A stretch of 64,000 bases of DNA. Source: an uncultured Clostridia bacterium. GTDB lineage: Bacteria > Bacillota > Clostridia > Oscillospirales > Oscillospiraceae. The notes under the pieces are model-generated. The model ran no database searches. It was not told the DNA's origin and saw nothing but the letters and a program-made list of their open reading frames with translations. The stretch is taken from the NCBI GenBank assembly GCA_947173485.1, contig CAMWFH010000004.1, positions 49,767 through 113,766 of the forward strand. Direction: 5' to 3'. Numbering within the stretch: position 1 is the first letter of the stretch; the number at the start of each line of letters is the position of its first letter. Below are positions 32,032-50,080 of the stretch, one piece after another. Made by a program: the position numbers and the translations under genes.

Positions 32032-32035
32032 TCTA

Positions 32036-33523: not shown

Positions 33524-35434
33524 TCAAAACCGCTGGCGCACCGCGCCGGGCGTCTCCAACCGGTAGCCGCCCAAACGCTCCAGCCGCTCCCGGAAGGCCC
33601 CACTCCCCAGGACCTCCAAAAGGCGCTGGACCATGGGCGTATCAAAGGCGGCATCGGGGATCAGCAGGTCGTACTGCTCCATGCAGACCGGCAGGAAGTC
33701 CAGTCCGTAGAGCTGGGCCGCGGAGTAGATGCCCATGCCGGCATCGGCGGTGCGGTTGGCGACCTGGGCCGCCACGGAGGTGTGGGTGAACTCCTCCCGG
33801 TCGTAGCCGTAGATCTTCGCCGGGTCGATCCCCCGCTCCTTACACAGGTAGTCGATCAGGATCCGGGTGCCGGAGCCCTTCTGGCGGTTGACGTACCGCA
33901 GGCCCTCCCGGCTGAGGTCCTCCAGGCCCCGTATGCCCTGAGGGTTGCCGGGGGGCAGCATCAGCCCCTGGGTCCGGCCCACGCACTCCACCAGGCGGAC
34001 ACCGCCGTTGGGGAAGTATCGCTTGATGAAGGCGGTGTTGTAGCTGCCGTCCCGCTCGTCCAGCAGGTGGACCCCGGCGATATGGGTCTCCCCCCGGCGG
34101 ACCGCCATGATGCCCCCCATGGAGCCCACATGGGTGGAGCTCATGTAGAGGGCCGGGTCCGCCAGGTGCAATAGGTCCGCCGCCTCGTCCAGCAGGGGGT
34201 CGTGGCTGCCGATGGCTACCAGGGTGTTCTCCAGCTCCTCTGCCGGACGGAGGAGCCGGACCTGTACGCCGGCGCCGGCCTCATAGCCCTCCACCCCCTG
34301 GGGGATGTCCAGGATGCCGTCGGCCTTCATGAAGGAGGTCACCACGCCGCTGCCCCGGCCCAAGGGGGAGGCCATGAGCTTGCCGCCCACCTTCCCCAGC
34401 CGGACCCGGACGAACTCCCGGTACTTCAGCCCCGACACCACCGCCCGGGACAGGGTGGCCTCCCGGACCGTCTCCGCCTGGGGGGCGGTCCGGTACCAGT
34501 CGTCCAGCAGGGGCCGCAGCAGCTCGGTCAGCACCAGGATCCCGGAGACCGGGTAACCGGGGACCCCCAGGATGGGCTTCTTGCCCTGGGCGCCCAGGAT
34601 GGCGGGCTTGCCGGGCTTGATGGCGATGCCGTGGTACAGCACCTCCCCCACCTCCCGGATGACGGCGGCGGACCAGTCCTCCCGTCCGGCGGAGGAACCG
34701 GCGTTCAGCAGGACGATGTCGCAGCTGTCCAGCGCCTCCCGGACCGCCGCCAGGATGGCTTCCTTCTGGTCCGGCACGATGGGGAAGGTCCTGGGGACCG
34801 CCCCCCACTGGGTGAGCATGGCGGAGAAGATGGAGGAGTTGAACTCCACGATGTCCCCCGGCCTGGGGTCGGCGGTGGGCGGGACGATCTCGTCCCCGGT
34901 GGGGATGATGCCCACCACGGCCCGGCGGAGGACCGGTACCTCCAGCACGCCCGCCGCCAGCATGGCCCCGATGGCGGCGGGGGAGATGGTCACATGGGAG
35001 GCCAGGAGCATCTCCCCGGCGCAGATATCCTCGCCGATCTGCCGGATGTGCTGCCAGGGGGCGGCGGGGGCGTAGAGCCGGACGGTGCCGTCCTCCTGCC
35101 GGATCACGTCCTCCACCATCACCACCGCGTCGCAGCCCTCCGGGACGGGGTCCCCGGTGTCCACCACGGTGAAGTCCTCCTCGGTGAGGGTGACGGGGGT
35201 GGTCTCGCTGGCCCCGAAGGTCACCTTGGCCGCCAGGGCGATGCCGTCCATGGCGCTGGCGGGGTAGTGGGGCGCGCAGATGTGGGCATAGACCGGTCCG
35301 GCGGTCACCCGGCCGCAGGAGTCCTGGACCGGGACGGTCTCCGCCGCCGGGCCGAAGCCCCGCTCCGCCAGAAAGGCCCGGTAGTCCGCCTGGGCCTGGT
35401 CCAAGGGGATATTGGTCAGATATTGGAACGCCAT
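33524..35434 (-). CDS. moeA: MoeA-type molybdopterin metal transferase fused to a C-terminal periplasmic-binding-protein-like (oxyanion-binding) domain
   Basis: MoeA core (SAMDGIAL, PTGDEI, LNAGSSAGREDW, IKPGKP) followed by ~230 aa of PBP-like sequence (GSHDPLL...NRQKGSGTR). Confidence 0.85.
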   Translation of the reverse strand: MAFQYLTNIPLDQAQADYRAFLAERGFGPAAETVPVQDSCGRVTAGPVYAHICAPHYPASAMDGIALAAKVTFGASETTPVTLTEEDFTVVDTGDPVPEGCDAVVMVEDVIRQEDGTVRLYAPAAPWQHIRQIGEDICAGEMLLASHVTISPAAIGAMLAAGVLEVPVLRRAVVGIIPTGDEIVPPTADPRPGDIVEFNSSIFSAMLTQWGAVPRTFPIVPDQKEAILAAVREALDSCDIVLLNAGSSAGREDWSAAVIREVGEVLYHGIAIKPGKPAILGAQGKKPILGVPGYPVSGILVLTELLRPLLDDWYRTAPQAETVREATLSRAVVSGLKYREFVRVRLGKVGGKLMASPLGRGSGVVTSFMKADGILDIPQGVEGYEAGAGVQVRLLRPAEELENTLVAIGSHDPLLDEAADLLHLADPALYMSSTHVGSMGGIMAVRRGETHIAGVHLLDERDGSYNTAFIKRYFPNGGVRLVECVGRTQGLMLPPGNPQGIRGLEDLSREGLRYVNRQKGSGTRILIDYLCKERGIDPAKIYGYDREEFTHTSVAAQVANRTADAGMGIYSAAQLYGLDFLPVCMEQYDLLIPDAAFDTPMVQRLLEVLGSGAFRERLERLGGYRLETPGAVRQRF

Positions 35435-35508
35435 CAAAAGCACCTCTTCTTTATGTATAATATAAAAGTCGTGCAGGTCGTGCCGGTCTTGAAAACGCAG
35501 CCGACCTC

Positions 35509-36729
35509 TCAGTCTATCTCATAGAGCCATACGTCCACCGTCTCCCCGGCGGTGCAGCCCTCCCGGTCCCGGGGGATGCAGAAGCACCCGTCGGAGCCGG
35601 CCAGGGTGGTGATGAGGCCGGACTTGCCCCGGATGGGGCGGGCATAGAGAGCCCCCGCCCGGTCCTCCAGAAAGACGCCCATATACTGGGCCCGGCCGTG
35701 GTTGGCGCTGACGGCCTCGGTGAGGACCGCGGGGACCGTCCGCTGCCGGAGGACGCGGCCCTGCATCCTGGCCAGCAGGGGGCGGACCAGGAGACGGGCC
35801 ACGAAGAACGCCGCCACCGGGTGCCCCGGCAGGCCCAGCACCGGCTTGCCCCTGGCGCTGCCCAAGATGGTGGGCTTGCCGGGCTTCATGGCGATGCCGT
35901 GGAACAGGACCTCCCCCCGGCTCCCGATGACCCGGCAGGCGGCGTCCTTCATCCCCACGGAGCTGCCCCCGGAGAGGAGGACCAGGTCGCACCGGCCCAG
36001 GGCCTCGTCCAGGGTCCGGCCCAGAAGGGCCTCATCGTCCTGGAGGATGCCGAAGTGGACCGCCTCCGCCCCCGCCTCCGCCGCCAGGGCCTGGAGCAGG
36101 GGGGCGTTCACGTCCCGGACCTGGCCCGCCTCCGGCACAGCCTCCACCGGCACCAGTTCGTCCCCGGTGGAGAGGATGCCCACCACCGGCCGCCGGCAGA
36201 CGGAGACCTGGGACGCCCCCAGGGCCGCCAGGGCCCCGATATCCGGGACCGCCAGCCGCCGGCCGGCGGGGAGGACGGTCTGTCCGGGCCGGACATCATC
36301 CCCCTTGAAGATCAGGTCGGCCCCAGGGGCAGCGCTCTTGGCGATGCCGATAGTGCCGTCGCCGTAGTCCTCGGTGTATTCGATCATCACCGCCGCGTCG
36401 GCTCCCGGCGGGATGGCCCCGCCGGTGGGCACCGCCACGCAGGCCCCCGGCGCCAGGGCCCCACCGGCTCCCTGGCCCATCAGCACCTCCCCCTGGAGGG
36501 CGAGGATGGCGGGGATGGCATCGGAGCAGCCGAAGGTGTCGGCGGAGCGGACGGCGTAGCCGTCCACGGTGGACCGGTCGAATCCGGGGACATACTCCGC
36601 GGCAACGACCGGGGCATAGAGGACCCGGCCCAGGGCCTGGTCCAGGGGGACGCTCTCCGGCTGGGGGCAGGGCAGGAACGCCGCCTCCAGGGCGGCCAGG
36701 GCCTCCGCCGGGGTCTTGACGGTCAGCAT
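35509..36729 (-). CDS. moeA: Molybdopterin molybdo/tungsto-transferase MoeA
   Basis: The ATG at 36729 follows AGGAGA. Motifs STVDGYAV, STGDEL, LSGGSSVGMKD and MKPGKP. Confidence 0.9.
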   Translation of the reverse strand: MLTVKTPAEALAALEAAFLPCPQPESVPLDQALGRVLYAPVVAAEYVPGFDRSTVDGYAVRSADTFGCSDAIPAILALQGEVLMGQGAGGALAPGACVAVPTGGAIPPGADAAVMIEYTEDYGDGTIGIAKSAAPGADLIFKGDDVRPGQTVLPAGRRLAVPDIGALAALGASQVSVCRRPVVGILSTGDELVPVEAVPEAGQVRDVNAPLLQALAAEAGAEAVHFGILQDDEALLGRTLDEALGRCDLVLLSGGSSVGMKDAACRVIGSRGEVLFHGIAMKPGKPTILGSARGKPVLGLPGHPVAAFFVARLLVRPLLARMQGRVLRQRTVPAVLTEAVSANHGRAQYMGVFLEDRAGALYARPIRGKSGLITTLAGSDGCFCIPRDREGCTAGETVDVWLYEID

Positions 36730-36798
36730 AGGCACTCTCCTAACAACATCAACAACATAACGCGAACAGCAGCGCGCAAAAGAAGGGCAGATCCGGTC

Positions 36799-36857: not shown

Positions 36858-37532
36858 ATGGAGGAGCGGTATATACGGAACATCCCCGCCATCTCGGCGG
36901 AGGAACAGGCCGCCCTGGCCCAAAAGCGGGTGCTGGTGGCGGGCTGCGGCGGACTGGGGGGCTATCTCATCGAGTATCTGGCCCGGCTGGGCGTGGGGGC
37001 GATCGACGCGGTGGACGGGGACGTGTTCGAGCCGTCCAACCTGAACCGGCAGCTGCTGTCCACGCCGGCCCTGGTAGGGACGGGCAAGGCCGAGGCCGCC
37101 AGGGCCCGGGTGGAGGCGGTGGCCCCTGGCGTGCGCCTGCGGGCCATACCGGTCTTTTTAGACGGGGAGAACGCCAGCGGGCTGGTCCAGGGCCAGGACC
37201 TGGCGCTGGACGCCCTGGACAACGTGCCCGCCCGGCTCCTCCTGGAGGACGCCTGCGCCCAGGCGGGGGTGTCCATCGTCCACGGGGCCATCCGGGGGTG
37301 GTCCGCCCAGGTGGCGGTGGTCCCGCCGGGGAGCGGACGGCTCCGCCGGCTCTACGGCAGCGGCGGCGGGGCCCCGATCGACAGGACCAGCCTGCCCTTC
37401 ACGCCCCCCTTCTGCGCCGCCATCCAGGCCGCCGAGGCGGTGAAGCTCCTGCTGGGCCGGCCCTCCTCCCTGGAAGGCCAGCTGCTGCTGGCGGACCTGC
37501 GGCGGATGGACTGGGACCTCCTGCCCCTCTGA
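36858..37532 (+). CDS. ThiF/MoeB/HesA-family adenylyltransferase (E1-like)
   Basis: VLVAGCGGLGGYLIEYLARLG dinucleotide fold and DGDVFEPSNLNRQ. It lacks a rhodanese domain. Confidence 0.85.
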   Translation: MEERYIRNIPAISAEEQAALAQKRVLVAGCGGLGGYLIEYLARLGVGAIDAVDGDVFEPSNLNRQLLSTPALVGTGKAEAARARVEAVAPGVRLRAIPVFLDGENASGLVQGQDLALDALDNVPARLLLEDACAQAGVSIVHGAIRGWSAQVAVVPPGSGRLRRLYGSGGGAPIDRTSLPFTPPFCAAIQAAEAVKLLLGRPSSLEGQLLLADLRRMDWDLLPL

Positions 37533-37533
37533 C

Positions 37534-38421
37534 CTAGCCGCCCCGGGGCAGCCGGAAGTAGTCCATGGCGAAGTCCCGGAAGTCCCTGGCCAGGGCGGAC
37601 AGGTGCTTCTCCCGGCGGAAGCAGACCATCATCTGCCGGGTGAACCGGCGGTCCTGGATGGGGATGAGCCGGAGGGAGGTGTCGTCCCGGTAGAAGGCCG
37701 CGCCGCTCTCCGGCACGAACCCGGCGCAGACCCCGGAGGCGATCATCTGCCGGTGGAGCTCCCGGGAGTCCACATAGCACTGGGGCCCGAACTGGACCGC
37801 CAGGGCCGAGCAGACCCGGAAGGGATGCTCCACGAAGCTCCGTCCCTCCCGGAGGAACACCAGCTCCAGCCCGTCCAGCGCCTTGGGCCGGATGGCGGCG
37901 CTGGCGGCCAGGGGGTGGCGGCTGGACACCGCCAGGAAGCACCGGTCCTCATAGAGGGGGAAACCGGTGAACTTCTCATACCGGCCCCCGGCGGGATAGA
38001 TCAGCATATCGAAGTCGTTGATATCCAGATGCTCCAGGCACTCGATGCCGCTGTTCAGGTCGAAGGCCGCCTCCGGCCGGACCTGGTGGAAGGCGGCGAC
38101 GCACCCGGCCAGGGGGCCGCTGGCCCCGGCGGCGCCGATCTTGATCCGGCTGTCCGCCCCGGTGGCCAGCAGGCGCATATCGTCCAGGGCGTACTCCAGC
38201 TCCCGGAGGACCAGGCTGCTGTACTCCAGGAGCCGGGCCCCGGCGGCGTTGAGGACCAGCCTCTTGCCGGACCGGTCGAAGAGGGGCATCCCCACCTCCG
38301 CCTCCAGCCGGGCCAGGTTCTTGGACAGGGAGGGCTGGGACAGGTGCAGGAGCTCCGCCGCCTGGGACACATTTTCCAGCTGGGCGATGGTAGCGAAATA
38401 GCGTAGCTGGTCGAGCTGCAC
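37534..38421 (-). CDS. LysR-family transcriptional regulator
   Basis: MQLDQLRYFATIAQLENVSQAAELLHLSQPSLSKNLARLE HTH. Divergent from the AOR operon. Confidence 0.9.
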   Translation of the reverse strand: MQLDQLRYFATIAQLENVSQAAELLHLSQPSLSKNLARLEAEVGMPLFDRSGKRLVLNAAGARLLEYSSLVLRELEYALDDMRLLATGADSRIKIGAAGASGPLAGCVAAFHQVRPEAAFDLNSGIECLEHLDINDFDMLIYPAGGRYEKFTGFPLYEDRCFLAVSSRHPLAASAAIRPKALDGLELVFLREGRSFVEHPFRVCSALAVQFGPQCYVDSRELHRQMIASGVCAGFVPESGAAFYRDDTSLRLIPIQDRRFTRQMMVCFRREKHLSALARDFRDFAMDYFRLPRGG

Positions 38422-38562
38422 GGCGGTCCCCCCTTTTTGGATGTATGCCCGTTCGCCATAAGTCTATTTGGCTGTTCCCACAGATCTCCGCCGGAAATAT
38501 AGGAGAGATGCACAGTTTTCCCGGAAAGATATCCGTCGAAATTCGTAAGGATCGCCGTCATT

Positions 38563-38576
38563 ATAGACCGGTCCAT
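38563..38576. promoter_or_regulatory. Dyad ATAGACCGGTCCAT in the lysR/AOR intergenic region, a candidate LysR-type site
   Basis: Self-complementary at 12/14 positions. It lies ~35 bp upstream of the -35 of the AOR promoter. Confidence 0.35.
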
Positions 38577-38610
38577 GCCAAAAAGCAATAAGAAATTTTG
38601 GTCACTTCCT

Positions 38611-38639
38611 TTACAGCCCCCCACCGGGAGCCCTATAAT
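38611..38639 (+). promoter_or_regulatory. sigmaA-type promoter for the AOR operon
   Basis: TTACAG, 17 nt, TATAAT. Confidence 0.5.
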
Positions 38640-38709
38640 GGAGCCATCCGAAAGAAACATTTTTGGAAGAAGGAGGTGGCTCTTGGGCTCCGGCCCAAGG
38701 AACGATGTT

Positions 38710-39186
38710 ATGAAACAACTGCTCATCAAACCTGAGAAATGTATCGGCTGCCGCACCTGCGAGCTGGTCTGCTCCTTCGGACACTATGGTCAGTTCAACC
38801 CGAAGCTGGCCAATGTGAAGGTGTTCGAGTATGAACAGGCCGCGGTGGCCATCCCCATCATGTGCCTCCAGTGCGAGGATCCCGCCTGCCTGAAGGTCTG
38901 CCCCGTCCACGCCATCAGCCGGGATGAGAACGGTGCGGTCACCATGAACTACGACAAGTGCATCGGCTGCAAGATGTGCCTCAACGCCTGCCCCCTGGGC
39001 AACATCTCCTACCACCCCGCCGCCAAGCGGGTCTTCAAGTGCGACCTCTGCGGCGGCGAGCCCAAGTGCGCCCGGTACTGCCCCGGCGGCGCCATCGCCT
39101 TCGTGGAGACGGACACCACCGACGAGCGGCGGCGGGCCCTCAGCGACCGCTATAAGGACCTGATCGGAGAGGAGGAGAAGGCATGA
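38710..39186 (+). CDS. 4Fe-4S polyferredoxin-type electron-transfer subunit (AorA/DmsB-like)
   Basis: MKQLLIKPEKCIGCRTCELVC..., with four Cys clusters. An in-frame TTG at 38683 has a stronger Shine-Dalgarno (AAGGAGG) and is an alternative start. The stop overlaps the AOR start. Confidence 0.85.
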   Translation: MKQLLIKPEKCIGCRTCELVCSFGHYGQFNPKLANVKVFEYEQAAVAIPIMCLQCEDPACLKVCPVHAISRDENGAVTMNYDKCIGCKMCLNACPLGNISYHPAAKRVFKCDLCGGEPKCARYCPGGAIAFVETDTTDERRRALSDRYKDLIGEEEKA

Positions 39187-40985
39187 AGAACGGATACATC
39201 GGCACGATCCTGCGTATCGACCTGAAGACCGGCTCCATCCGTACCGAGCCGCTGAATGAGAAGAGCGCCAACGAGTATGTGGGCGCCCGGGGACTGGGCA
39301 CCAAGTACTACTGCGACGAGTGCGACCCCAAGTGCGACCCCCTGGGCCCGGACAACAAGCTCATCTTTATGACCGGCCCCCTCACCGGCACCTGCGCCAC
39401 CTCCTCCGGCCGGTACAACGCCGTGGCCAAGTCCCCCCTGACGGGCACCATCGGCGCGGCCAACTCCGGCGGCCACTTCGGCCCGGAGCTGAAGTACGCC
39501 GGGTATGACGGCATCATCTTCGAGGGCGCGTCCGACCACCCGGTCTACCTCTACATCAGTGACGATAAGGTGGAGCTGCGGGACGCCTCCCACCTCTGGG
39601 GCAAGGACGTGTTCGAGACCACCGAGGCCCTCTACGCCGAGTGCGGCGAGGACTTCCGGGTGGCCTGCATCTCCGCCGCCGGGGAGACCGGCTGTCTCTT
39701 CGCCGGCATCATGAACGACAAGCACCGGGCGGCGGGCCGGGGCGGCATGGGCGCGGTCATGGGCAGCAAAAAGCTGAAGGCCGTGGCCGTGAAGGGCACC
39801 GGCAGCGTGTTCGTGGCCCGTCCTGAGAAGTTCTTCGAGGAGTGCACCAAGGCCCGGGACACCCTGAAGGCCCACCCGGTCACCGGGGCCGGCCTCTCGG
39901 CCTACGGCACCATGATCCTGGTGAACATCGTCAACGGCGTAGGCGGCCTGCCGGTGAACAATGGCCGGGACGGCTCCCTCTTCCCCCAGGCCGACGACAT
40001 CTCCGGCGAGAGCCTCACCGCCCGTCACCTCATCCGCAACAAGGGATGTTTCGGCTGCTCCATCGGCTGCGGCCGGCTCACGGAGATCAAGTCCGGGGCC
40101 TTCAAGTCCAAGGGCGAGGGCCCGGAGTATGAGGCCGGCTGGTCCTTCGGCGCCGACTGCGGCGTCACCGACCTGGGCGCCGTGTGCAACGCCAACTTCC
40201 TCTGCAACCAGTACGGCATCGACCCCATCACCATGGGGGCCACTGTGGCCTGCGCCATGGAGCTCTTCGAGATGGGGGCCATCACCGAGGCCGAGGTAGG
40301 CTTCCCCCTCCGGTTCGGCGATGCCGCCGCCATGGTCAAGGCCACCGAGATCACCTGCAAGGGCGAGGGCTTCGGCAAGATCATGGGCCTGGGCTCCTAC
40401 CGGATGGCCGAGAAGTATGGCCACCCCGAGCTCTCCATGTCCGTGAAGAAGCAGGAGATGCCCGCCTACGATGGCCGGGCCATCCAGGGCATCGGCCTAG
40501 AGTACGCCACCTCCAACCGGGGCGGCTGCCACGTCCGGGGCTATATGATCTCCCCGGAGGTCCTGGGCATCCCCATGGCCATGGATCCCCTGGTCACCAA
40601 GGATAAGCCCGCCACCCTGAAGCTCTTCCAGGACCTGACCGCCCTTTGCGATGCCACGGGCATCTGCCTCTTCACCACCTTCGGCATCGGTCTCCCAGAG
40701 ATCGCCGGGATGTACCGGGAGGCCGTGGGCAGTGACGAGAGCGACGCGGACATCCTGCTGAAGGGCGAGCGGATCTGGAACCTGGAGAAGCAGTTCAACA
40801 TCGCCGCCGGCGTGGAGAAGGACACCCTGCCCCCCCGGCTCCTCCGGGAGAAGCTGCCGGAGGGCCCTGCCGCCGGCAAGGTCAACGAGCTCCACGAGAT
40901 GCTCAAGGAGTACTACGCGGCCCGGGGCTGGACCGAGGAGGGCATCCCCACGGCGGAGAAGCTCCAGGAGCTGCATCTGAGCTGA
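39183..40985 (+). CDS. aor: Tungsten-dependent aldehyde:ferredoxin oxidoreductase family protein
   Basis: 600 aa with an AOR_N + AOR_C layout: GARGLG, SGRYNAVAKSPLTG, AAGRGGMGAVMGSKKLKA, CFGCSIGCG (the [4Fe-4S] ligands), and EYATSNRGGCH. Confidence 0.95.
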   Translation: MKNGYIGTILRIDLKTGSIRTEPLNEKSANEYVGARGLGTKYYCDECDPKCDPLGPDNKLIFMTGPLTGTCATSSGRYNAVAKSPLTGTIGAANSGGHFGPELKYAGYDGIIFEGASDHPVYLYISDDKVELRDASHLWGKDVFETTEALYAECGEDFRVACISAAGETGCLFAGIMNDKHRAAGRGGMGAVMGSKKLKAVAVKGTGSVFVARPEKFFEECTKARDTLKAHPVTGAGLSAYGTMILVNIVNGVGGLPVNNGRDGSLFPQADDISGESLTARHLIRNKGCFGCSIGCGRLTEIKSGAFKSKGEGPEYEAGWSFGADCGVTDLGAVCNANFLCNQYGIDPITMGATVACAMELFEMGAITEAEVGFPLRFGDAAAMVKATEITCKGEGFGKIMGLGSYRMAEKYGHPELSMSVKKQEMPAYDGRAIQGIGLEYATSNRGGCHVRGYMISPEVLGIPMAMDPLVTKDKPATLKLFQDLTALCDATGICLFTTFGIGLPEIAGMYREAVGSDESDADILLKGERIWNLEKQFNIAAGVEKDTLPPRLLREKLPEGPAAGKVNELHEMLKEYYAARGWTEEGIPTAEKLQELHLS

Positions 40986-41003
40986 CCCATTTCGATACCG
41001 GGA

Positions 41004-41036
41004 CCGGAAGCGGTGAAACAGCCGCTTCCGGTTTTG
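41004..41036 (+). terminator. Intrinsic terminator/attenuator between aor and moaD
   Basis: 10-bp perfect stem ccggaagcgg / ccgcttccgg followed by tttt. Confidence 0.65.
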
Positions 41037-41057
41037 GTGCGTTACACAGGAGGCCCT

Positions 41058-41339
41058 ATGACGGTCCAGTTTTTTGCCTATCTCCGGGACCCGGAGTTCG
41101 TCGGCTGCAAGGCCGTCTCCTGGCCCTGCACGCCCACCCTGCAGGACCTGGGCGAGGCGCTGTGCGCGGCCTACGGGGACCGGTTCCGGGGCGAGTTCTT
41201 CTCCCCCGACGGCACGGCCCTGGGGGAGCGAGTGATCGTGATGGTCAACGGCCGCCGGCTGGAGTTCCTGGACGGCCTGGACACGGTCCTACAGGACACG
41301 GACACCATCCTGATCTTCCCGGTGGTCGCCGGCGGCTGA
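41058..41339 (+). CDS. moaD: MoaD/ThiS-family sulfur carrier (C-terminal GG)
   Basis: The ATG at 41058 follows AGGAGG. 93 aa ending ...IFPVVAGG. Confidence 0.75.
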   Translation: MTVQFFAYLRDPEFVGCKAVSWPCTPTLQDLGEALCAAYGDRFRGEFFSPDGTALGERVIVMVNGRRLEFLDGLDTVLQDTDTILIFPVVAGG

Positions 41340-41377
41340 CACCGGTCATTCTAAAACCATAAGGCGGTGATATTTTT

Positions 41378-41851
41378 ATGGAGATCGTTTCCTTGGAGAT
41401 CCTAGAGATCTTACAGCGATACCCCAAGGAGCAGCGGTACTGCTTGGCCATCTTACAGGACTTACAGCGCCGGTACAACTACATCCCCCGGGAGGGCATG
41501 GAGGCCCTGGCGGACTACCTGTCCTGCCCCCTCTCCTCCCTCTACTCCATGGCCACCTTCTACAAGGCTCTGAGCCTCAAGCCCAAGGGGCGGCACATCA
41601 TCAAGCTCTGTGACGGCACGGCCTGCCACATCCGGGGGGCCAATACCCTCTGTGACGGGATCGTCCGGCTCCTGGGCATCGGCCCGGACGAGACCACCCC
41701 CGATGGGCTGTTCTCCCTGGAGCTGGTGAACTGCCTGGGCTCCTGCGCCCTGGCCCCGGTGATGGTGGTGGACGAGACCTACTACGGCAAGATGACCATG
41801 GAGAAGCTGCCGGGCATCCTGGACAGCTATCGAGAGGAGGCTGCCACATGA
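41378..41851 (+). CDS. NuoE/HydC-like [2Fe-2S] thioredoxin-fold subunit
   Basis: CDGTACHIRG ... CLGSCALAP Cys pattern. Confidence 0.9.
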   Translation: MEIVSLEILEILQRYPKEQRYCLAILQDLQRRYNYIPREGMEALADYLSCPLSSLYSMATFYKALSLKPKGRHIIKLCDGTACHIRGANTLCDGIVRLLGIGPDETTPDGLFSLELVNCLGSCALAPVMVVDETYYGKMTMEKLPGILDSYREEAAT

Positions 41852-43638
41852 GGACCATTCGTGTCTGCTGCGGCACCGGGTGCCTGGCCAACGGCAGCGC
41901 CCAGGTGGCGGCGGAATTCGAGCGGCTGACCCAGGGGACGCAGGTGCAGGTGGAGTGCCACGTCAAGCGCACCGGCTGCAACGGCTTCTGCGAGAACGGG
42001 CCCCTGGTGACCATCCTGCCGGACGAGATCGCCTACTACCGGGTGAAGGTGGCCGATGTGCCGGAGATCCTGGAGCGGACCATCCAAAAGGGGGAGCTGG
42101 TGGAGCGGCTGCTCTACAAGAACGATGCGGGCCAGCGGGTCCGGGGCCAGAGCGACAACCCCTTCTACGCCCCCCAGATGAAGATCGCCCTGCGGAACAT
42201 CGGCAAGATCGAGCCGGCCAACGTGGACGACTACCTGGCCTCCGGGGGCTATGAGGCTCTGAAAAAGGCCCTCACCATGACGCCGGAGCAGATCCTGGAC
42301 GAGATGGACGCCTCCGGCCTCCGGGGCCGGGGGGGCGCCGGCTTCCCCACGGGCCGCAAGTGGCGGACGGCGGCGGGGTACGATGTCACCCCCAAGTATG
42401 TGGCCTGCAACGGCGACGAGGGGGACCCTGGGGCCTTTATGGACCGGTCCATCCTGGAGGGGGACCCACACAGCGTCCTGGAGGGCATGGCCATCTGCGC
42501 CCTGGCCATCGGAACCGAGGAGGGCTTCCTCTACATCCGTGACGAGTACGCCCTGGCGGTGCAGAACGTGCGCGCTGCCATCGCCGCCGCCGAGGCCCGG
42601 GGCATCCTGGGGGATGACGTGCTGGGCAGCGGCAAAAAGCTCCTTCTCTCCGTGGTCCGGGGAGGCGGGGCCTTCGTCTGCGGCGAGTCTACCGCCCTCA
42701 TGGCCTCCATCGAAGGCCGGGTGGGCGAGCCAAGGGCCAAGTATATCCGCTCGGTCCAGCGGGGCCTCTGGGACCGGCCCACGGTGCTGAACAACGTGGA
42801 GACTTTGGCCAACGTGCCCTACATCATCGCCCACGGCGGGGCCCACTATGCCAGCGTGGGCACCGAGGGCAGCAAGGGCACCAAGGTCTTCGCCCTGGTG
42901 GGCAAGGTGAAGCGGACGGGCCTGGTGGAGGTGCCCATGGGGGCCACCCTGCGGCATTTGATCTACGACATCGGCGGCGGCGTCCAGGGGGACCGGCCCT
43001 TCAAGGCCGTCCAGACCGGCGGGCCCTCCGGCGGGTGCATCCCGGAGAGTATGCTGGACCTGCCGGTGGACTTCGACACTTTGAAGCAGTACGGAGCCAT
43101 GATGGGCTCCGGCGGCATGATCGTGATGGACGACCGCAGCTGCATGGTGGAGGTGGCCCGGTACTATGTCAACTTCCTCTGCGGCGAGAGCTGCGGCAAG
43201 TGTACCCCCTGCCGGGAGGGTCTGAAGCAGATGCTGGCCATCCTGACGGACATCTGCGAGGGCCGGGGGACCCTGGAGGACTTGGACCTGCTGGAGCAGC
43301 TGGGGGAGACCATGCAGGACTGCTCCCTCTGCGCCCTGGGCAAGTCGGCCCCCAACCCGGTGCTGACCACGTTAAAATATTTCCGGGAGGAGTACGAGGC
43401 CCATATCAAGGAACACCGCTGTCCCGCCGGGGTCTGCAAGGCGCTGACCGCCTTCGCCATCGACCCGGCGGCCTGCAAGGGCTGCACCGCCTGCGCCCGG
43501 GCCTGCCCCGCCGGGGCCATCACCGGCACGGCCAAGCAGCCCCACACCATCGACCGCGCCAAGTGCATCGCCTGCGGCAGCTGCCGGGAGGCCTGCCGGT
43601 TCGGCGCTGTGCGCACCAAGGGGAGGGACGACACATGA
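41848..43638 (+). CDS. NuoF/HydB-like FMN/NAD(H)-binding FeS subunit
   Basis: N-terminal [2Fe-2S] fold (CCGTGCLANG), GRGGAGFPTG, CNGDEGDPGAF, ESCGKCTPCREG, and a C-terminal 2x[4Fe-4S] ferredoxin domain. Confidence 0.9.
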   Translation: MRTIRVCCGTGCLANGSAQVAAEFERLTQGTQVQVECHVKRTGCNGFCENGPLVTILPDEIAYYRVKVADVPEILERTIQKGELVERLLYKNDAGQRVRGQSDNPFYAPQMKIALRNIGKIEPANVDDYLASGGYEALKKALTMTPEQILDEMDASGLRGRGGAGFPTGRKWRTAAGYDVTPKYVACNGDEGDPGAFMDRSILEGDPHSVLEGMAICALAIGTEEGFLYIRDEYALAVQNVRAAIAAAEARGILGDDVLGSGKKLLLSVVRGGGAFVCGESTALMASIEGRVGEPRAKYIRSVQRGLWDRPTVLNNVETLANVPYIIAHGGAHYASVGTEGSKGTKVFALVGKVKRTGLVEVPMGATLRHLIYDIGGGVQGDRPFKAVQTGGPSGGCIPESMLDLPVDFDTLKQYGAMMGSGGMIVMDDRSCMVEVARYYVNFLCGESCGKCTPCREGLKQMLAILTDICEGRGTLEDLDLLEQLGETMQDCSLCALGKSAPNPVLTTLKYFREEYEAHIKEHRCPAGVCKALTAFAIDPAACKGCTACARACPAGAITGTAKQPHTIDRAKCIACGSCREACRFGAVRTKGRDDT

Positions 43639-44375
43639 CCATCACCATCAACGGCAAGCCCTGCGCCTGCGAGCGGGGCGAGTTCCTGCTCCAGGTGGCC
43701 CGGCGCAACGGCTTCGAGATCCCCACCCTCTGCCACCACGAGGCCATCGCCGGCCAGGGCTGCTGCCGGCTCTGCATCGCGGAGGTGGTGGAACGGGGGA
43801 AAGGGCGCATCGTGGTCTCCTGCGTGTTCCCCGTGGAGCGGGAGTGCGAGGTCTATACCGACAGCGACAAGGTCCGCCGGGAGCGGGGCATGGTGCTGCG
43901 CCTTCTGGAGAAGCGGGCCCCGGAGAGCCCCGAGATCCAGGCTCTGAGCCAGAAGTACGCCGCTCCGGCGATCGACCGGTTCGTGAAGGTGGACGGGGGG
44001 AAGTGCGTCCTCTGCGGATTGTGCGTGAAGGCCTGCGGGGAGCTCTCCGTGGGGGCCATCTCCACGGTGAGCCGGGGGGTGACCAAGGAGATCGCCACCC
44101 CCTACCATGAGCCCAGCAGCGTCTGTGTGGGCTGCGGCAGCTGCGCCCACGTCTGCCCCACTGGGGCCATCGAGATCCAGGAGACGGAGGACAGCCGGAC
44201 CATCTGGGGCCGGACCTTCCGGTTGGTCCGCTGCGCCCAGTGCGGACAGGTCCTCGGCACGGCGGAGGAGCTGGCCCATGCCGCCCAAAAGTCCGGCCAG
44301 GACCCGGAGGCCCTCTGCCCCGCCTGCCGCCAGCGGCAGATGGCAGACGTGTTCTCCCAGACCTACGGCGGATAA
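43635..44375 (+). CDS. NuoG-N-terminal/HydA-N-terminal-like FeS protein without any catalytic domain
   Basis: The ATG at 43635 follows GGGAGG. [2Fe-2S] motif (CHHEAIAGQGCCRLC), His-ligated/4Fe-4S motifs (CVLCGLCVKAC, CVGCGSCAHVCP) and a terminal Cys4 ribbon (CAQCG...CPAC). Only 246 aa. Confidence 0.8.
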   Translation: MTITINGKPCACERGEFLLQVARRNGFEIPTLCHHEAIAGQGCCRLCIAEVVERGKGRIVVSCVFPVERECEVYTDSDKVRRERGMVLRLLEKRAPESPEIQALSQKYAAPAIDRFVKVDGGKCVLCGLCVKACGELSVGAISTVSRGVTKEIATPYHEPSSVCVGCGSCAHVCPTGAIEIQETEDSRTIWGRTFRLVRCAQCGQVLGTAEELAHAAQKSGQDPEALCPACRQRQMADVFSQTYGG

Positions 44376-44382
44376 ACATACG

Positions 44383-44420
44383 CTCCCGGCGGATCCGGTC
44401 CTGTCCGTATCCGCCGGGAG
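44383..44420 (+). terminator. 12-bp perfect hairpin after the NuoG-like gene (no T-tract)
   Basis: ctcccggcggat ... atccgccgggag. Confidence 0.4.
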
Positions 44421-44447
44421 AAAAGCGTCGAAACATGGACTGCGGCC

Positions 44448-44476
44448 TTGCATTTCCCGCGGCATCGTGCTATACT
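44448..44476 (+). promoter_or_regulatory. sigmaA-type promoter for tupA
   Basis: TTGCAT, 17 nt, TATACT. Confidence 0.55.
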
Positions 44477-44482
44477 GGAACA

Positions 44483-44622
44483 AAGCCCCATTTTTGCTGC
44501 ATATCGTCTTGAAAAGCGGTGGACGAGCCTCTTTCCAAGCACCGGCCCACCGGGAGATCTCCCGGCTGGCTTTGCTTTGGATGGGGCTTGTTTACTTTTT
44601 TTGTATTTGGAGGAAAGAAGAA
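44483..44622 (+). promoter_or_regulatory. Structured ~140-nt 5' leader of tupA (candidate Moco/tungsten-cofactor riboswitch, unverified)
   Basis: Long-range pairing AAGCCCCA (44483-90) with TGGGGCTT (44582-89). Extended hairpin at 44535-44580. CTTTCC (44531-36) is complementary to the GGAAAG of the Shine-Dalgarno (44612-17). I only partly remember the Moco motif, so this is a guess. Confidence 0.3.
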
Positions 44623-45681
44623 ATGAAAAAGTCCCTCGCATGGCTCCTGACCCTGGTCCTGCTCCTAGGACTGCTGGCCGGCTGCGGCAACAACAGCAAG
44701 ACCCCCGATGAGCCCACGCCCCCCTCGAACAGCGATCAAAACACGCCCACCCCGCCGGTCAACGATCCCCCGGAGGCCCCGCCAACGGACCCCTCCCCCA
44801 CGGTGGACACCATGATCCTCAAGGAAGCGGACGACAAGATGATCAACACCTACACCCTGCTGGCGGTGGACCCCAACGCCCCCTTCACCGACGCTGACGG
44901 CAAGGCGGTGGACGGCGTGGCGGTGAATACCGCCGGGGCCGAGGCCCTGATCCAGTGGCTCCTCTCCGATGAGGGCCTGACCATGGCCGCCGAGTACGGC
45001 CAAGCCGACTTTGGCGACAGCCTCTTCTATCTCCTGGAGGGCGCGCCCAAGTACACCGGGGACATCGCCGCCGCCACCGAGGAGACGAAGACCATCCGCC
45101 TCTCCACCACCACCTCCGTCAACGACTCCGGCCTGCTGGGGGTCCTGCTGCCGGCCTTTGAGAGCAAGTACGGCTACACCGTGGAGGTCCAGTCCGCCGG
45201 CACCGGCAAGGCCATCGCCGCCGCCAAGTACGGCAACGCCGACCTGATCCTGGTCCACGCCAAGAGCCAGGAGGAGGCCTTCGTGGCCGATGGATTCTCC
45301 TATGTCCTGCCCGGCTTTGAGAGCGAGCGGCTGTCCTTCCTGTATAACTACTTCGTCCTCTGCGGCCCCTCTGACGACCCCGCCGGGGTGAAGGACTGCG
45401 CCAGCGTCCTGGACGCCTTCGCCGCCATCGCCGACGGCAAGTACGCCTTCATCTCCCGGGGCGACGGCTCCGGCACCCACACCAAGGAGCTGTCCCTGTG
45501 GCCGGAGAGCCTGGGCATCACCGCCGAGGCGGAGAGCTTCAAGGACTACACCAAGTGGTACACCTCCGCCAACGCCGGCATGGGGGCCTGCCTGGTGATG
45601 GCCGAGCAGATGCACGGCTACATCCTCACCGACAAGGCCACCTTCTTGACCTTCCAGGCCAATGGTGGTATCATGAGCTAA
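44623..45681 (+). CDS. tupA: Tungstate-binding lipoprotein TupA-like (apparently circularly permuted)
   Basis: Lipobox LLAGCG and a Pro-rich linker. The core TTTSVNDSGLLGVLLPAFE...AGTGKA...ISRGDGSGTHTKE...YILTDKATFL matches TupA hallmarks. The segment that is normally C-terminal sits at the N-terminus (aa 64-140). Confidence 0.8.
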   Translation: MKKSLAWLLTLVLLLGLLAGCGNNSKTPDEPTPPSNSDQNTPTPPVNDPPEAPPTDPSPTVDTMILKEADDKMINTYTLLAVDPNAPFTDADGKAVDGVAVNTAGAEALIQWLLSDEGLTMAAEYGQADFGDSLFYLLEGAPKYTGDIAAATEETKTIRLSTTTSVNDSGLLGVLLPAFESKYGYTVEVQSAGTGKAIAAAKYGNADLILVHAKSQEEAFVADGFSYVLPGFESERLSFLYNYFVLCGPSDDPAGVKDCASVLDAFAAIADGKYAFISRGDGSGTHTKELSLWPESLGITAEAESFKDYTKWYTSANAGMGACLVMAEQMHGYILTDKATFLTFQANGGIMS

Positions 45682-45689
45682 AGCGATGC

Positions 45690-45721
45690 GCCGGGGCAGG
45701 CCGCCTGCCCCGGCTTTTTTA
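45690..45721 (+). terminator. Intrinsic terminator between tupA and tupB
   Basis: 11-bp stem gccggggcagg / cctgccccggc followed by seven T. Confidence 0.75.
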
Positions 45722-45753
45722 TGATCGTAGGATGATGTAGGAGGTGTCCCCTT

Positions 45754-46440
45754 ATGCAGACGGCCCTGGAGAAGGCCCTCGCTCTGCTCCTCAGCGGCGA
45801 CAAGGAGCTGGGCAATATCCTGCTGGTGACGGCCAAGACCAGCGTCTCCAGCTCCCTGATCGCCCTGCTGCTGGGGGCGCCCCTGGGGATCTGGCTGGGG
45901 GCCTGCCGGTCCCGGTGGAAGCAGGTCCTGGTCATCCTGGACCGGACCCTTATGGGGATGCCACCGGTGGTCTGCGGTCTGCTCCTCTACCTGCTCTTCT
46001 CCGGGGTAGGGCCCTTTGGGCGGTACAAGCTGCTGTTCACGGTGCCCATCATGGTCCTGGCCCAGGTGCTGCTGATCACGCCGCTGGTGGTGGGGAATCT
46101 GGAGACCTATGTCTCCGGCATCGCCCAGCCGGTCCGGGAGACCGCCCTGGGCCTGGGCCTGGGGCGGGGCAGGACCTTCCTCCTGCTGGCCAATGAGTGC
46201 GTCTATCCCATCTTCTCCACCTATCTCCTGGCCTTCGCCCGGGCCATCGCCGAGGTGGGGGCGGTGTCCATGGTGGGCGGGGCCATCGCCTGGAAGACCA
46301 ACGTGATGACCACCGCCATCATGCAGTACACCAACCGGGGGAACTTCTCCCTGGGCATCGCCCTGGGGCTGATCCTGATGACCCTCTCCCTGGCGGTGAA
46401 CATCGCCGTATCTCTGCTGCAAAGGAGGCTGAGCCGGTGA
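45754..46440 (+). CDS. tupB: Tungstate ABC transporter permease
   Basis: 228 aa with 5-6 TM segments, MGMPPVVCGLLLYLLFS motif. The start follows the Shine-Dalgarno GGAGGTG. Confidence 0.8.
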   Translation: MQTALEKALALLLSGDKELGNILLVTAKTSVSSSLIALLLGAPLGIWLGACRSRWKQVLVILDRTLMGMPPVVCGLLLYLLFSGVGPFGRYKLLFTVPIMVLAQVLLITPLVVGNLETYVSGIAQPVRETALGLGLGRGRTFLLLANECVYPIFSTYLLAFARAIAEVGAVSMVGGAIAWKTNVMTTAIMQYTNRGNFSLGIALGLILMTLSLAVNIAVSLLQRRLSR

Positions 46441-47096
46441 AGGCAAGGGCCTGTACCAAGACCTTTGAGGGCCGGCGGGTGCTGTCGGTCCCGGAGATCT
46501 CCTTCGCGCCGGGGAAGATCTATGCCCTGATCGGGGCCAACGGCAGCGGGAAGAGCACCTTCGCCCGGCTGCTGGCCGGCGTGCTGCCGGCGGACGGCCG
46601 GGGCCGGGTCCTGGAGGGGCCGGGGCGGGTGGGGTATATGCCCCAGAGGAGCTACGCCTTCCGGCTCACCACCCAGGCCAACATCCTCCTTGCTGGCAAG
46701 GACCGGGACCGGGCGGCGCGTCTGATGGCGGCCCTGGGCCTGACGGACCTGGCCCGGCAGCGGGCCGGCGGCCTCTCCGGCGGGGAGACCGCCAAGATGG
46801 CCCTGGCCCGGCTGCTGATGGGGTCCTTCGACCTGCTGCTCCTGGACGAGCCCACGGCGGCCATGGACATGGAGTCGGCCATCCTGGCGGAGGGCCTGGT
46901 GGACGCCCACCGGCGGGAGACGGGCTGCACCGTCCTCCTGATCACCCACGACCTCCAGCAGGCCCGGCGCATGGCGGACGAGGCCCTCTTCTTCCGGGAG
47001 GGCCAGCTGTGGGAGCAGGGACCGGCCGAAACGCTGCTCTATACGCCGGAGCGGCCGGAGACCCGGCAGTTTTTGGCCTTCTACGGCGGCGCCTGA
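46437..47096 (+). CDS. tupC: Tungstate ABC transporter ATP-binding protein
   Basis: The GTG at 46437 overlaps the tupB stop. Walker A GANGSGKST, signature LSGGETAKMALARL, Walker B LLLLDEPT. Confidence 0.8.
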   Translation: MKARACTKTFEGRRVLSVPEISFAPGKIYALIGANGSGKSTFARLLAGVLPADGRGRVLEGPGRVGYMPQRSYAFRLTTQANILLAGKDRDRAARLMAALGLTDLARQRAGGLSGGETAKMALARLLMGSFDLLLLDEPTAAMDMESAILAEGLVDAHRRETGCTVLLITHDLQQARRMADEALFFREGQLWEQGPAETLLYTPERPETRQFLAFYGGA

Positions 47097-48824: not shown

Positions 48825-48886
48825 ATGTCCTCCTTTTTGTCTCCATCCCCTGGGGGCGGAGACCATATCCTTGCTCAAAATGCTCT

Positions 48887-50057: not shown

Positions 50058-50080
50058 ACGCTTCCCTCCTTCCGGCCCGC

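Follow-up and report, generated by a model that had tools for sequence, protein, structure and literature searches.

Tungsten-containing oxidoreductases of the WorABCSL type combine a tungsten aldehyde oxidoreductase with a Bfu trio and are coupled to both NAD+ and ferredoxin (PMC12318220, PMC9304861, PMC11725836, PMC13328260). The biochemistry and structure of these enzymes have been published (PMC12318220, PMC11725836, PMC13328260), and that of the thermophilic Synergistete Acetomicrobium mobile (AmWOR1), encoded by a type-2 operon (CBASL), was purified and solved by cryo-EM as WorABC(SL)3 (PDB 9MQX). In Eubacterium limosum, WOR1 (wor1SLXABC) has the type-1 order, in which a MoaD-like gene named wor1X/WorX, for maturation and not a subunit (PMC11725836, PMC13328260), lies between SL and the Bfu genes. 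Two other systems are related in part. AorABC of Aromatoleum aromaticum (Class III, N-type WOR, 8C0Z) has an FeS-nanowire small subunit and a MoaD-like accessory gene, and its single FAD subunit, AorC, reduces NAD+ without bifurcation. The HydABC/BfuABC family (FeFe-, NiFe-, Nfn- and Fdh-Bfu) shares the B and C core subunits.

In the present study, a window of 64,000 nucleotides (the whole stretch of DNA analysed) from an Oscillospiraceae bacterium, a high-GC host of gut/rumen type, was compared with these systems. All nine genes that a sequence-only reading had placed in one plus-strand string were found, with slightly corrected coordinates (Table 1). We consider it highly probable that the product of these genes is a tungsten-containing oxidoreductase WorABCSL of Class IV / BF-type (Type-2 Bfu), orthologous to the A. 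mobile enzyme. The genus of enzyme is already established and the window holds a clear new member of it. Since the same kind of enzyme has been purified and solved, the enzyme of the window is therefore ordinary.

Table 1. Genes and sequence elements at the wor-tup locus and in its upstream neighbourhood (positions in the window)
Feature	Position	Strand	Remarks
Two MoeA genes	33524..36735	-	one fused to PBP-like domain; Pfam
ThiF/MoeB-like activating enzyme	36858..37532	+	PF00899 2.3e-49
LysR-family regulator gene, divergent, upstream of worS	37534..38421	-	HTH_1 + LysR_substrate
Promoter-like site, wor operon	38610..38639	+	TTTACA-18-TATAAT; 11/12 consensus match
worS, polyferredoxin small subunit	38710..39186	+	158 aa; 16 Cys; 4x[4Fe-4S]
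worL, tungstopterin catalytic subunit, AOR clade	39183..40985	+	600 aa; AFOR_N 8e-85, AFOR_C 3.5e-138
Intercistronic hairpin + short U-rich tail, worL-worX spacer	41003..41039	+	stem 41003-41032; tail TTTGGTG
worX, MoaD/ThiS-like sulfur carrier	41058..41339	+	PF02597 1.5e-11; TIGR01687 50.9 bits (cut-off 49.5)
worC, NuoE-like [2Fe-2S] subunit of Bfu core	41378..41851	+	PF01257 1.4e-47
worB, NuoF-like FMN/NAD(H) subunit	41848..43638	+	596 aa; Pfam: N-terminal 2Fe-2S, C-terminal 2x[4Fe-4S]
worA, short BfuA 'plug', NuoG-N-terminal-like	43635..44375	+	246 aa; Fer2_4 + 4Fe-4S dicluster (2Fe-2S, 2x[4Fe-4S])
Strong hairpin directly after worA	44383..44420	+	read from sequence; U-tract absent
Promoter-like site, tupABC	44447..44475	+	TTGCAT-17-TATACT; TG-extended -10; read from sequence
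Conserved tupA leader	44500..44602	+	small hairpin with invariant GGUGGACGAGCC core or long terminator + U-tract, mutually exclusive
tupA, lipoprotein tungstate-binding protein	44623..45681	+	PBP_like_2; NCBIfam TupA 3e-37, under equivalog cut-off
Terminator-like hairpin between tupA and tupB	45690..45714	+	11-bp stem, 10 GC, then TTTTTT
tupB, permease	45754..46440	+	BPD_transp_1; NF038017 2.3e-48; TupB 4.9e-40, under equivalog cut-off
tupC, ATPase	46437..47096	+	ABC_tran 1.4e-22; GTG start

Among solved structures, all five subunits matched best to their counterpart chains in 9MQX: WorL with 9mqx_D (1.9e-234, 59% identity), WorB with 9mqx_B (1.3e-228, 57%), WorA with 9mqx_A (6.8e-59 over residues 3-240, 45%), WorC with 9mqx_C (1.3e-43, 46%) and WorS with 9mqx_E (5.9e-40, 43%). 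The next matches were AorA (8c0z_C) for WorS and the AORs 9g7j, 8c0z and 1aor (~1e-194) for WorL, whose match to 9mqx_D lies far ahead of FOR, WOR5 and BamB. All five subunits are orthologous to those of A. mobile, with matching lengths, and every cluster-ligand and zinc-finger cysteine block is retained (16 conserved cysteines in WorA, 16 of 16 aligned in WorS, 4 in WorC and 22 in WorB), as is the cluster motif C-x2-C-x3-C...C of WorL. The window WorA is as short as its A. mobile counterpart (246 against 247 aa), lacks clusters A3 and A5, accompanies a full Bfu BC core and ends in a helix and a four-cysteine zinc finger whose residues C200/C203/C228/C231 are invariant among 14 homologues. Its sequence holds no H-x3-C-x2-C-x5-C motif (His-ligated cluster), and no catalytic domain was found among its domain matches, in agreement with the earlier description of a NuoG-like protein with FeS motifs only. 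Its N-terminal part matches HydA, but, compared with the HydABC/BfuABC family, it carries neither an H-cluster nor a pterin or NADP domain, and the separate SL subunits handle the third substrate (Type 2 Bfu). The earlier suggestion that the AOR is the sole catalytic module for the NuoEFG-like trio is supported by the WorABCSL literature and by the best matches to 9MQX chains.

By homology to the A. mobile enzyme, WorL would oxidize aldehyde to acid at a tungsto-bispyranopterin site, and the electrons would leave through its [4Fe-4S] cluster to the four [4Fe-4S] clusters of WorS. WorS-WorL units chained via C-terminal helices would build an FeS 'nanowire', on which WorA would dock by its zinc-finger-buttressed C-terminal helix. 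With clusters A1, A2 and A4 only and no catalytic domain, WorA would pass the electrons to the WorB/WorC core, where FMN and the surrounding clusters would send part of them to NAD+ (exergonic) and part to ferredoxin (endergonic). We infer by analogy that the window enzyme contains tungsten, bifurcates and has the 1:3 stoichiometry; the distal tail of WorA carries Q/T/G in place of I244/F245/H247 of A. mobile, and therefore the 1:3 assembly may differ. Points against the assignment are the modest identities of 43-59% to the solved enzyme, an operon type other than that of A. mobile and a regulation unlike that of E. limosum. The sequence-only proposal of an aldehyde/carboxylate oxidoreductase coupled to NAD+ and ferredoxin (bifurcating or confurcating) is supported and agrees with the published accounts of WorABCSL. 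The physiological substrate is probably a broad range of aldehydes, with a role in detoxification.

The reaction would be reversible in principle, and the same complex might run physiologically as a confurcating carboxylic-acid reductase, in which NADH and reduced ferredoxin yield aldehydes for alcohol formation. Reversibility has been described for Bfu reactions (PMC9304861), Methanofollis Class IV WORs have been proposed in alcohol metabolism (PMC13328260), AORs are known to reduce acids (PMC9295118), and confurcation had been proposed from the sequence alone. We nevertheless regard this direction as unlikely, because the published rationale of bifurcation is to pull trace-aldehyde oxidation against excess acid (PMC12318220, PMC13328260), E. 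limosum WOR1 was assigned to acetaldehyde detoxification (PMC11725836) and no alcohol dehydrogenase gene was seen in the annotated neighbourhood of the wor locus.

WorL and WorS also strongly match AorB (9.9e-194) and AorA (1e-37) of AorABC, and bifurcation is absent from the NuoEF-type modules found in Rhodobacter FDH, Ralstonia SH and complex I (PMC9304861), so that a trio merely relaying electrons to NAD+, as AorC does, could be imagined. This is quite improbable. In place of AorC, the window has three Bfu subunits, and its WorB keeps both the extra N-terminal 2Fe-2S and the C-terminal 2x[4Fe-4S] domains, which are missing from non-bifurcating homologues (PMC9304861). The nearest solved relatives of WorB are all bifurcating, with HydB, NiFe-B and NfnB (1e-190 to 1e-225) following 9mqx_B; WorC matches HydC, NiFe-C and NfnC at 1e-34 to 1e-39.

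The bifurcating WorABCSL reading is further supported by gene order. The order worS-worL-worX-worC-worB-worA is kept in 56 of the 59 related loci with enough flank, which belong to Oscillospiraceae, Lachnospiraceae, Anaerovoracaceae, Eubacterium and Coriobacteriales, and the 21 loci at contig edges all agree with it. This grouping is therefore not chance, and the possibility raised earlier that the NuoEFG-like genes are never conserved together with the AOR is decisively contradicted. That the trio belongs to another complex (e.g. a hydrogenase or FDH encoded elsewhere) while the AOR works alone with ferredoxin is scarcely credible: a transcript boundary could lie at the hairpin and 72-nt spacer that follow worL, and worL is missing beside S..CBA in one related locus (L080), but this is contradicted by the synteny across several families, by the WorS-docking zinc finger and helix of a WorA without catalytic domain, and by the A. 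mobile complex, which was purified and solved as a single particle (PMC12318220).

The operon has the published type-1 organisation of E. limosum (type-1 SLCBA), here SL-X-CBA (SLXCBA) in a mesophile-type host, with worX between worL and worC in all complete related loci; the subunit set, described as not established in the sequence-only reading, had already been published, with worX as a non-subunit gene. Identity to the Eubacterium loci is only 55-73%, the gene order of the window recurs in E. aggregans and E. barkeri (L073, L074), and E. limosum shares the Firmicute gut context with tupABC nearby. The WorX product ends in GG and, by analogy, would act in cofactor maturation. Its preferred start, ATG 41058, is preceded by a GGAGG site; the alternative GTG 41013 falls within the hairpin. 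The ATGA overlaps at 41848 and 43635 were confirmed, and worS and worL overlap by 4 nt at 39183. Tungsten cofactor would be supplied by WorX, the neighbouring ThiF, MoeA, MoaA, MoaB-MoaE and MoaC, and TupABC. The ThiF/MoeB-like enzyme, present in 41 related loci, is the likely partner of WorX, and the MoeA pair, co-located in many, may insert metal into the pterin.

In E. limosum and its relatives, the Moco/Tuco riboswitch RF01055 precedes worS and tupA, positions it also holds in LysR-less relatives. In contrast, no match to it was found at the window locus even at E<=10. It is replaced here by a divergent LysR gene, with a homologue in the same place in 39 of 54 related loci, and by another kind of tupA leader. 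The site before worS may be the wor promoter. The tupABC site scored under the threshold of the promoter scan that detected the wor site; in relatives, promoter-like sites of their own occur at the equivalent place. The 247-nt worA-tupA gap (44376-44622) was confirmed, and its first hairpin may be the operon end or an RNA 3' stabiliser. Of the claim that the tungstate importer is wired into the string, adjacency held; with its own promoter-like site and leader, tupABC is probably a separate transcription unit rather than a fixed part of one transcript. TupA matches the tungstate-binding protein 3lr1 (1.4e-40) and 5my5 (2.8e-31), and its residues 61-107 show a weak alignment to the C-terminal stretch 182-230 of 3muq; it is apparently circularly permuted, which the cited WOR literature does not mention. 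The NCBIfam TupA and TupB scores lie under the equivalog cut-offs, and the tungstate (rather than molybdate) specificity is therefore only presumed.

A CGAGCC(U)C string with a long helix behind it is common to the tupA leader and the 5' part of RF01055, but the leader is without the 3' aptamer half and has the architecture of a small hairpin versus a terminator. Alternative structures were obtained by folding in all 12 aligned leaders, with 90% paired and compensatory changes at 4 of 10 pairs, and in 1.25 Mb its model (R1) matched only this leader type. The leader reads as an antiterminator hairpin with the GGUGGACGAGCC core that would compete with the terminator. The hairpin noted earlier at 41004-41036 was also confirmed. 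The 72-nt spacer including it folds at -36.8 kcal/mol (MFE; z = -5.3 vs shuffles), z is below -2 for 40 of 46 distinct spacers of at least 40 nt from relatives, and a covariance model (R2) gave strong matches at this spacer only; compensatory changes occur at 7 of 12 pairs in an alignment partly selected by the hairpin. Neither element has an entry or match in Rfam 15 or a description in the cited WOR literature. As far as this literature goes, both conserved RNA elements are an undescribed part of an otherwise known system, and the worL-worX hairpin, conserved and position-specific, could be the basis of the 3:1 SL:ABC ratio reported in the literature.

The sequence-only reading had proposed a string of nine genes, from the polyferredoxin gene worS to the importer gene tupC, and all nine were found on the plus strand by ORF listing and domain scans. 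The ATGA overlaps at 41848 and 43635 are genuine, as are the worS/worL overlap, the hairpin after worL and the 247-nt gap 5' of tupA. The best start of worX is ATG 41058, which lies downstream of GGAGG; GTG 41013 was rejected as a start, being placed inside the hairpin and having no ribosome-binding site. WorX matches PF02597, scores 50.9 against a cut-off of 49.5 for TIGR01687 and ends in ...VVAGG, all as in MoaD/ThiS carriers.

Features of the wor-tup region, with the best structural matches of the redox subunits
Feature	Position	Strand	Remarks
MoaA	30197-31165		cofactor island
Two MoeA genes	33524-36735	-	cofactor island; one with fused PBP-like domain
ThiF/MoeB	36858-37532	+	cofactor island
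LysR gene, divergent	37534-38421	-	upstream of worS
wor promoter-like site	38610-38639	+	near-consensus; promoter scan
worS, polyferredoxin	38710-39186	+	158 aa; 9MQX chain E, E 5.9e-40, 43% identity
worL, AOR-family protein	39183-40985	+	600 aa; AFOR_N 8e-85, AFOR_C 3.5e-138; 9MQX chain D, E 1.9e-234, 59% identity
worL-worX hairpin, conserved, GC-rich	41003-41039	+	stem 41003-41032; same spacer in related loci L002-L079
worX, MoaD/ThiS-like	41058-41339	+	93 aa; GG at C-terminal end
worC, NuoE-like	41378-41851	+	9MQX chain C, E 1.3e-43, 46% identity
worB, NuoF-like	41848-43638	+	596 aa; additional N-terminal 2Fe-2S and C-terminal 2x[4Fe-4S] domains; 9MQX chain B, E 1.3e-228, 57% identity
worA, NuoG-N-terminal-like	43635-44375	+	246 aa (247 aa in A. 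mobile); without catalytic domain; 9MQX chain A, E 6.8e-59, 45% identity
tupABC promoter-like site	44447-44475	+	TG-extended -10; sequence
tupA leader, conserved	44500-44602	+	small hairpin versus long terminator with U-tract
tupA	44623-45681	+	
tupB	45754-46440	+	
tupC	46437-47096	+	GTG start
MoaB-MoaE fusion	47943-49091	-	beyond tupABC
MoaC	49536-50084		beyond tupABC

When compared with all solved structures, the five redox proteins point to a single entry, 9MQX, a cryo-EM structure of Acetomicrobium mobile WorABCSL (AmWOR1), in which the best match of each protein is its counterpart chain. The PDB ranking of WorL, with AmWOR1 WorL first, then 9g7j, AorB and PfAOR, and with FOR, WOR5 and BamB far behind, together with its AFOR_N and AFOR_C domains and [4Fe-4S] Cys motif, ranks the protein with the AOR clade (clade 87). 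In WorS, 16/16 aligned query cysteines are conserved relative to 9mqx_E, which corresponds to a polyferredoxin with four [4Fe-4S] clusters; in its putative C-terminal chaining helix, the positions K143, F145 and F149 are R, L and Y in the window. WorA has 16 cysteines in register with 9mqx_A, corresponding to the 2Fe-2S cluster A1, the [4Fe-4S] clusters A2 and A4 and a four-Cys zinc finger (C200/C203/C228/C231) that is invariant in 14 homologues, and its sequence contains neither a His-ligated A3 cluster motif, nor A5, nor a catalytic C-terminal domain. The core of the docking helix is kept (R234, M236, A237 and F240 for R236, Y238, A239 and F242 of A. mobile), and the alignment thus describes a short BfuA with A1/A2/A4 only, a zinc finger and a C-terminal docking helix. 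The domain scan, the alignments with 9mqx_B and 9mqx_C and the Cys counts gave the FMN/NAD domain, B1 and the extra B2-B5 sites in WorB, and the C1 [2Fe-2S] site in WorC. Two domains of BfuB, an N-terminal 2Fe-2S and a C-terminal 2x[4Fe-4S] domain, are missing from non-bifurcating homologues (Schut et al. 2022, PMC9304861), whereas the WorB of the window keeps both.

In A. mobile, an FeS nanowire built from three WorSL units delivers electrons to a single bifurcating 'plug', WorABC, and NAD+ and ferredoxin are reduced simultaneously, coupled to aldehyde oxidation (PMC12318220). Tungsten content, coupled NAD+/ferredoxin reduction and the ABC(SL)3 stoichiometry have been established for A. mobile and E. 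limosum alone (PMC12318220, PMC11725836). Judged by its sequence, the window locus is a further member of this known, structurally solved enzyme class. The five 9MQX matches and the conserved synteny indicate that an AOR coupled through the Nuo-like trio to NAD+ and ferredoxin, as had been proposed from the sequence, was the correct functional reading, but one that had been published before.

A profile of WorA homologues yielded 80 loci from species genomes. The order S-L-X-C-B-A is the same in 56 of the 59 loci with sufficient upstream sequence, which gives the SL(X)CBA/CBASL gene cluster, and all 21 loci truncated at a contig end agree with it over the part that remains. That the NuoEFG-like genes might never be co-conserved with AOR is contradicted by these 56 collinear loci, and the functional reading is therefore supported. 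The hosts include Oscillospiraceae, Flavonifractor, Lawsonibacter, Lachnospiraceae (Dorea, Faecalicatena, Oribacterium), Mogibacterium/Anaerovoracaceae, Eubacterium aggregans, E. barkeri and one Coriobacteriales MAG. The closest relatives are Oscillospiraceae, with WorS and WorL of locus L002 being 93-95% identical to those of the window. With reference to the SLCBA and CBASL operon types defined previously (PMC13328260), the window operon is of 'type 1' (SLCBA), worX being placed after SL and before CBA, like wor1SLXABC of E. limosum (PMC11725836, PMC13328260). Two incomplete arrangements were also seen. Locus L080 (1833-10738) has worS-like and worCBA-like genes (46-60% identity) about 5 kb apart, without worL or worX, and may use a different catalytic partner; at locus L078 (7171-7725) a lone partial worA, which may be an operon remnant, stands beside MoeA genes and tupABC. 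One search gave 1578 WorA homologues at E<=1e-20, with 351 genome stretches confirmed, and published lists of the Wor-Bfu group hold 29-102 members; the group is thus much commoner in gut and rumen Clostridia than these lists indicate. The window adds a high-GC Oscillospiraceae case to the Firmicute members and little that is new on the enzyme.

The wor operon is located within a cofactor island. The MoaB-MoaE gene of this island is a single ORF with MoCF_biosynth and MoaE domains, an apparent MoaB/Mog-MoaE fusion whose true start is probably internal, at MRYTAAVITISDKG... A Pyr_redox_2 protein and an FAD oxidoreductase (DAO + Fer2_BFD, the latter a BFD-like 2Fe-2S domain) are encoded between the MoaA and MoeA genes (31147-33517, minus strand). 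At 50081-51043 (minus strand) lies the gene of a DNA/RNA non-specific endonuclease of secreted type, adjoined at 51590-52363 (plus strand) by a protein with a Fic-type HPFxDGNGR motif, recognized from the translation only.

The tungstate importer had been counted as part of the gene string. The tupABC genes are indeed adjacent, but since they have their own promoter-like site and leader they are a neighbour and probably a separate transcription unit. TupA matches the tungstate-binding proteins 3lr1 and 5my5 in the PDB and contains a TTTS string, while the NCBIfam scores of TupA (128 vs 400) and TupB (138 vs 320) are both under the equivalog cut-offs; we infer a tungstate-type ABC importer with putative specificity for W over Mo. 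After the lipobox TupA has a low-complexity Pro/Thr linker. Solved TupA-like proteins align over their residues 5-179 with residues 156-345 of TupA, and their C-terminal residues 182-230 align weakly with its residues 61-107 (conditional E = 4e-4), which suggests that TupA is circularly permuted; such a permutation would explain the sub-threshold NCBIfam score. Between tupA and tupB, a strong terminator-like hairpin of 11 bp followed by TTTTTT was seen at 45690-45714; such a hairpin would fit a surplus of binding protein over permease and ATPase.

What may be new in the locus is confined to the regulatory RNA leads. In E. limosum, Moco/Tuco riboswitches lie upstream of both WOR1 and tupABC (PMC11725836), whereas the window has a divergent LysR gene and a different tupA leader. 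The riboswitch family, RF01055, gave no match in the window at the gathering score, nor at E<=10 in 38350-38760 and 44300-44700. More generally, no Rfam family matched the window at the gathering score; at E<=10 the surroundings of worS, of the worL-worX spacer and of the tupA leader gave nothing relevant, and neither did three other stretches (L010, L026, L171) at E<=5. A divergent LysR-family gene is present upstream of worS in 39 of 54 loci. No RF01055 was found in the window or in the five LysR-carrying loci tested with Rfam, while among nine LysR-less loci RF01055 is directly upstream of worS in six and at least one copy is present in eight (L055, L059, L062, L064, L066, L073, L051, L053). 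Across the 15 cases tested, the LysR gene and RF01055 were thus mutually exclusive, and this distribution suggests that the same operon is regulated in either of two ways.

The tupA leader sits where relatives have the Moco/Tuco riboswitch. It matches no Rfam family, although it has CGAGCC(U)C and the following helix in common with the 5' part of RF01055. We compared 12 leaders of the same TupA type (window, L002, L005, L006, L010, L011, L031, L077, L078, L168, L171 and L182), across which a GGUGGACGAGCC core is invariant. On folding, the 5' part alone gave a small hairpin with a GGACGA loop (-8 to -16 kcal/mol) in 12/12 leaders, and the full leader, again in 12/12, gave a long terminator of -27 to -50 kcal/mol with a U-tract behind it. 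Because the terminator builds its 5' arm with the 3' arm of the small hairpin, the two structures exclude each other. Pairing in the small hairpin is 90%, and both sides have changed in 4/10 pairs; MAFFT/RNAalifold on whole leaders recovered this 5' hairpin only, and the terminator helix comes from single-sequence folding. A separate antiterminator in an upstream segment (AAAGCCCCAU in the window), complementary to the 3' arm of the terminator, was rejected, being clear in only 4 of the 12 leaders.

In 1.25 Mb, the covariance model of the leader found only tupA leaders of this type and one further site, at 1992-2036 of stretch L026 (E = 1e-4), 5' of two genes whose translations were read as a FecCD-like permease and an ABC ATPase. 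A second, degenerate copy, GATGGACGAGTC, lies at about 2240-2260 of this stretch, at the ribosome-binding site of the FecCD-type pair. This Fe-type ABC transporter context recalls the iron transporters of E. limosum that are under Tuco riboswitch control (PMC11725836). An exact 12-mer match in L017 (2180-2210), where the same UGGACGAG loop stands between complementary arms 10 nt before worS, is ambiguous; the equivalent hairpin in the worS leader of the window, at 38682-38699, overlaps the ribosome-binding site, and its loop is UCCG. The exact 12-mer match in L001 is inside a coding sequence with MoaA-like translation and was taken as chance. A metagenome scan with GGTGGACGAGCCTC listed at least 120 stretches, among which only L168, L171 and L182 are real tupA leaders; the other 117 of 120, mostly from soil and other environmental metagenomes, are followed by no tupA homologue and presumably match by chance. 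We regard the tupA leader as a candidate regulatory RNA: it may respond to tungsten or to the cofactor as a switch not described so far, or an RNA-binding protein may recognize it.

The second RNA lead is the worL-worX hairpin. The spacer that holds it is the sole sizeable gap within the operon: between worX and worC the median is 22 nt, and worC overlaps worB, as worB does worA. When distinct spacers of 40 nt or more were folded against dinucleotide shuffles, 40/46 had z < -2 (median z = -4.25), and the window spacer had z = -5.3; no hairpin was detected in spacers of 33 nt or less (12 of the 59 loci with both genes complete). The Flavonifractor loci L021-L023 lack the spacer. Oscillospiraceae, Lachnospiraceae and Mogibacterium share the stem CCGGA(A/G)GCGG...CCGCTTCCGG and the tail (A/T)TTTGGTGCAT. 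In an alignment of 30 sequences, 93% of cells pair and 7/12 pairs have compensatory changes, a count that is partly circular because the fragments were chosen by their hairpin. A dispersed REP-like repeat can be dismissed, since strong matches of the covariance model of the hairpin are restricted to the worL-worX spacer, including three loci outside the training set (L037, L042, L013). A canonical terminator would agree with the strong stem, but the window and many relatives have just UUUGGUG as the tail, and in several others it lacks any U; the U-tract being short or absent, the hairpin is probably not a terminator of this kind. The terminator scan likewise made no call at this site. In E. 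limosum, RNA of wor1L and wor1S is about 3-fold over that of worXABC, 'for unknown reasons' (PMC11725836), and the cryo-EM structure has three SL per ABC (PMC12318220). From these data we infer that the hairpin, by leaky termination or by blocking 3'-exonucleases, would set a worSL:worXCBA mRNA ratio of about 3:1. Such a ratio matches the ABC(SL)3 stoichiometry, and the hairpin may be the cis element that sets it.

It is possible, though we consider it rather unlikely, that this lineage has swapped the regulatory layer of a known enzyme and that the tupA leader and the worL-worX hairpin are two new RNA elements. Overall, the gain for the enzyme is modest and the useful leads are regulatory. 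If true, the leader would provide a candidate RNA element for the control of tungstate uptake in lineages without the Tuco riboswitch, and the hairpin would provide a cis-acting explanation for the differential expression of worSL and worXABC in E. limosum.
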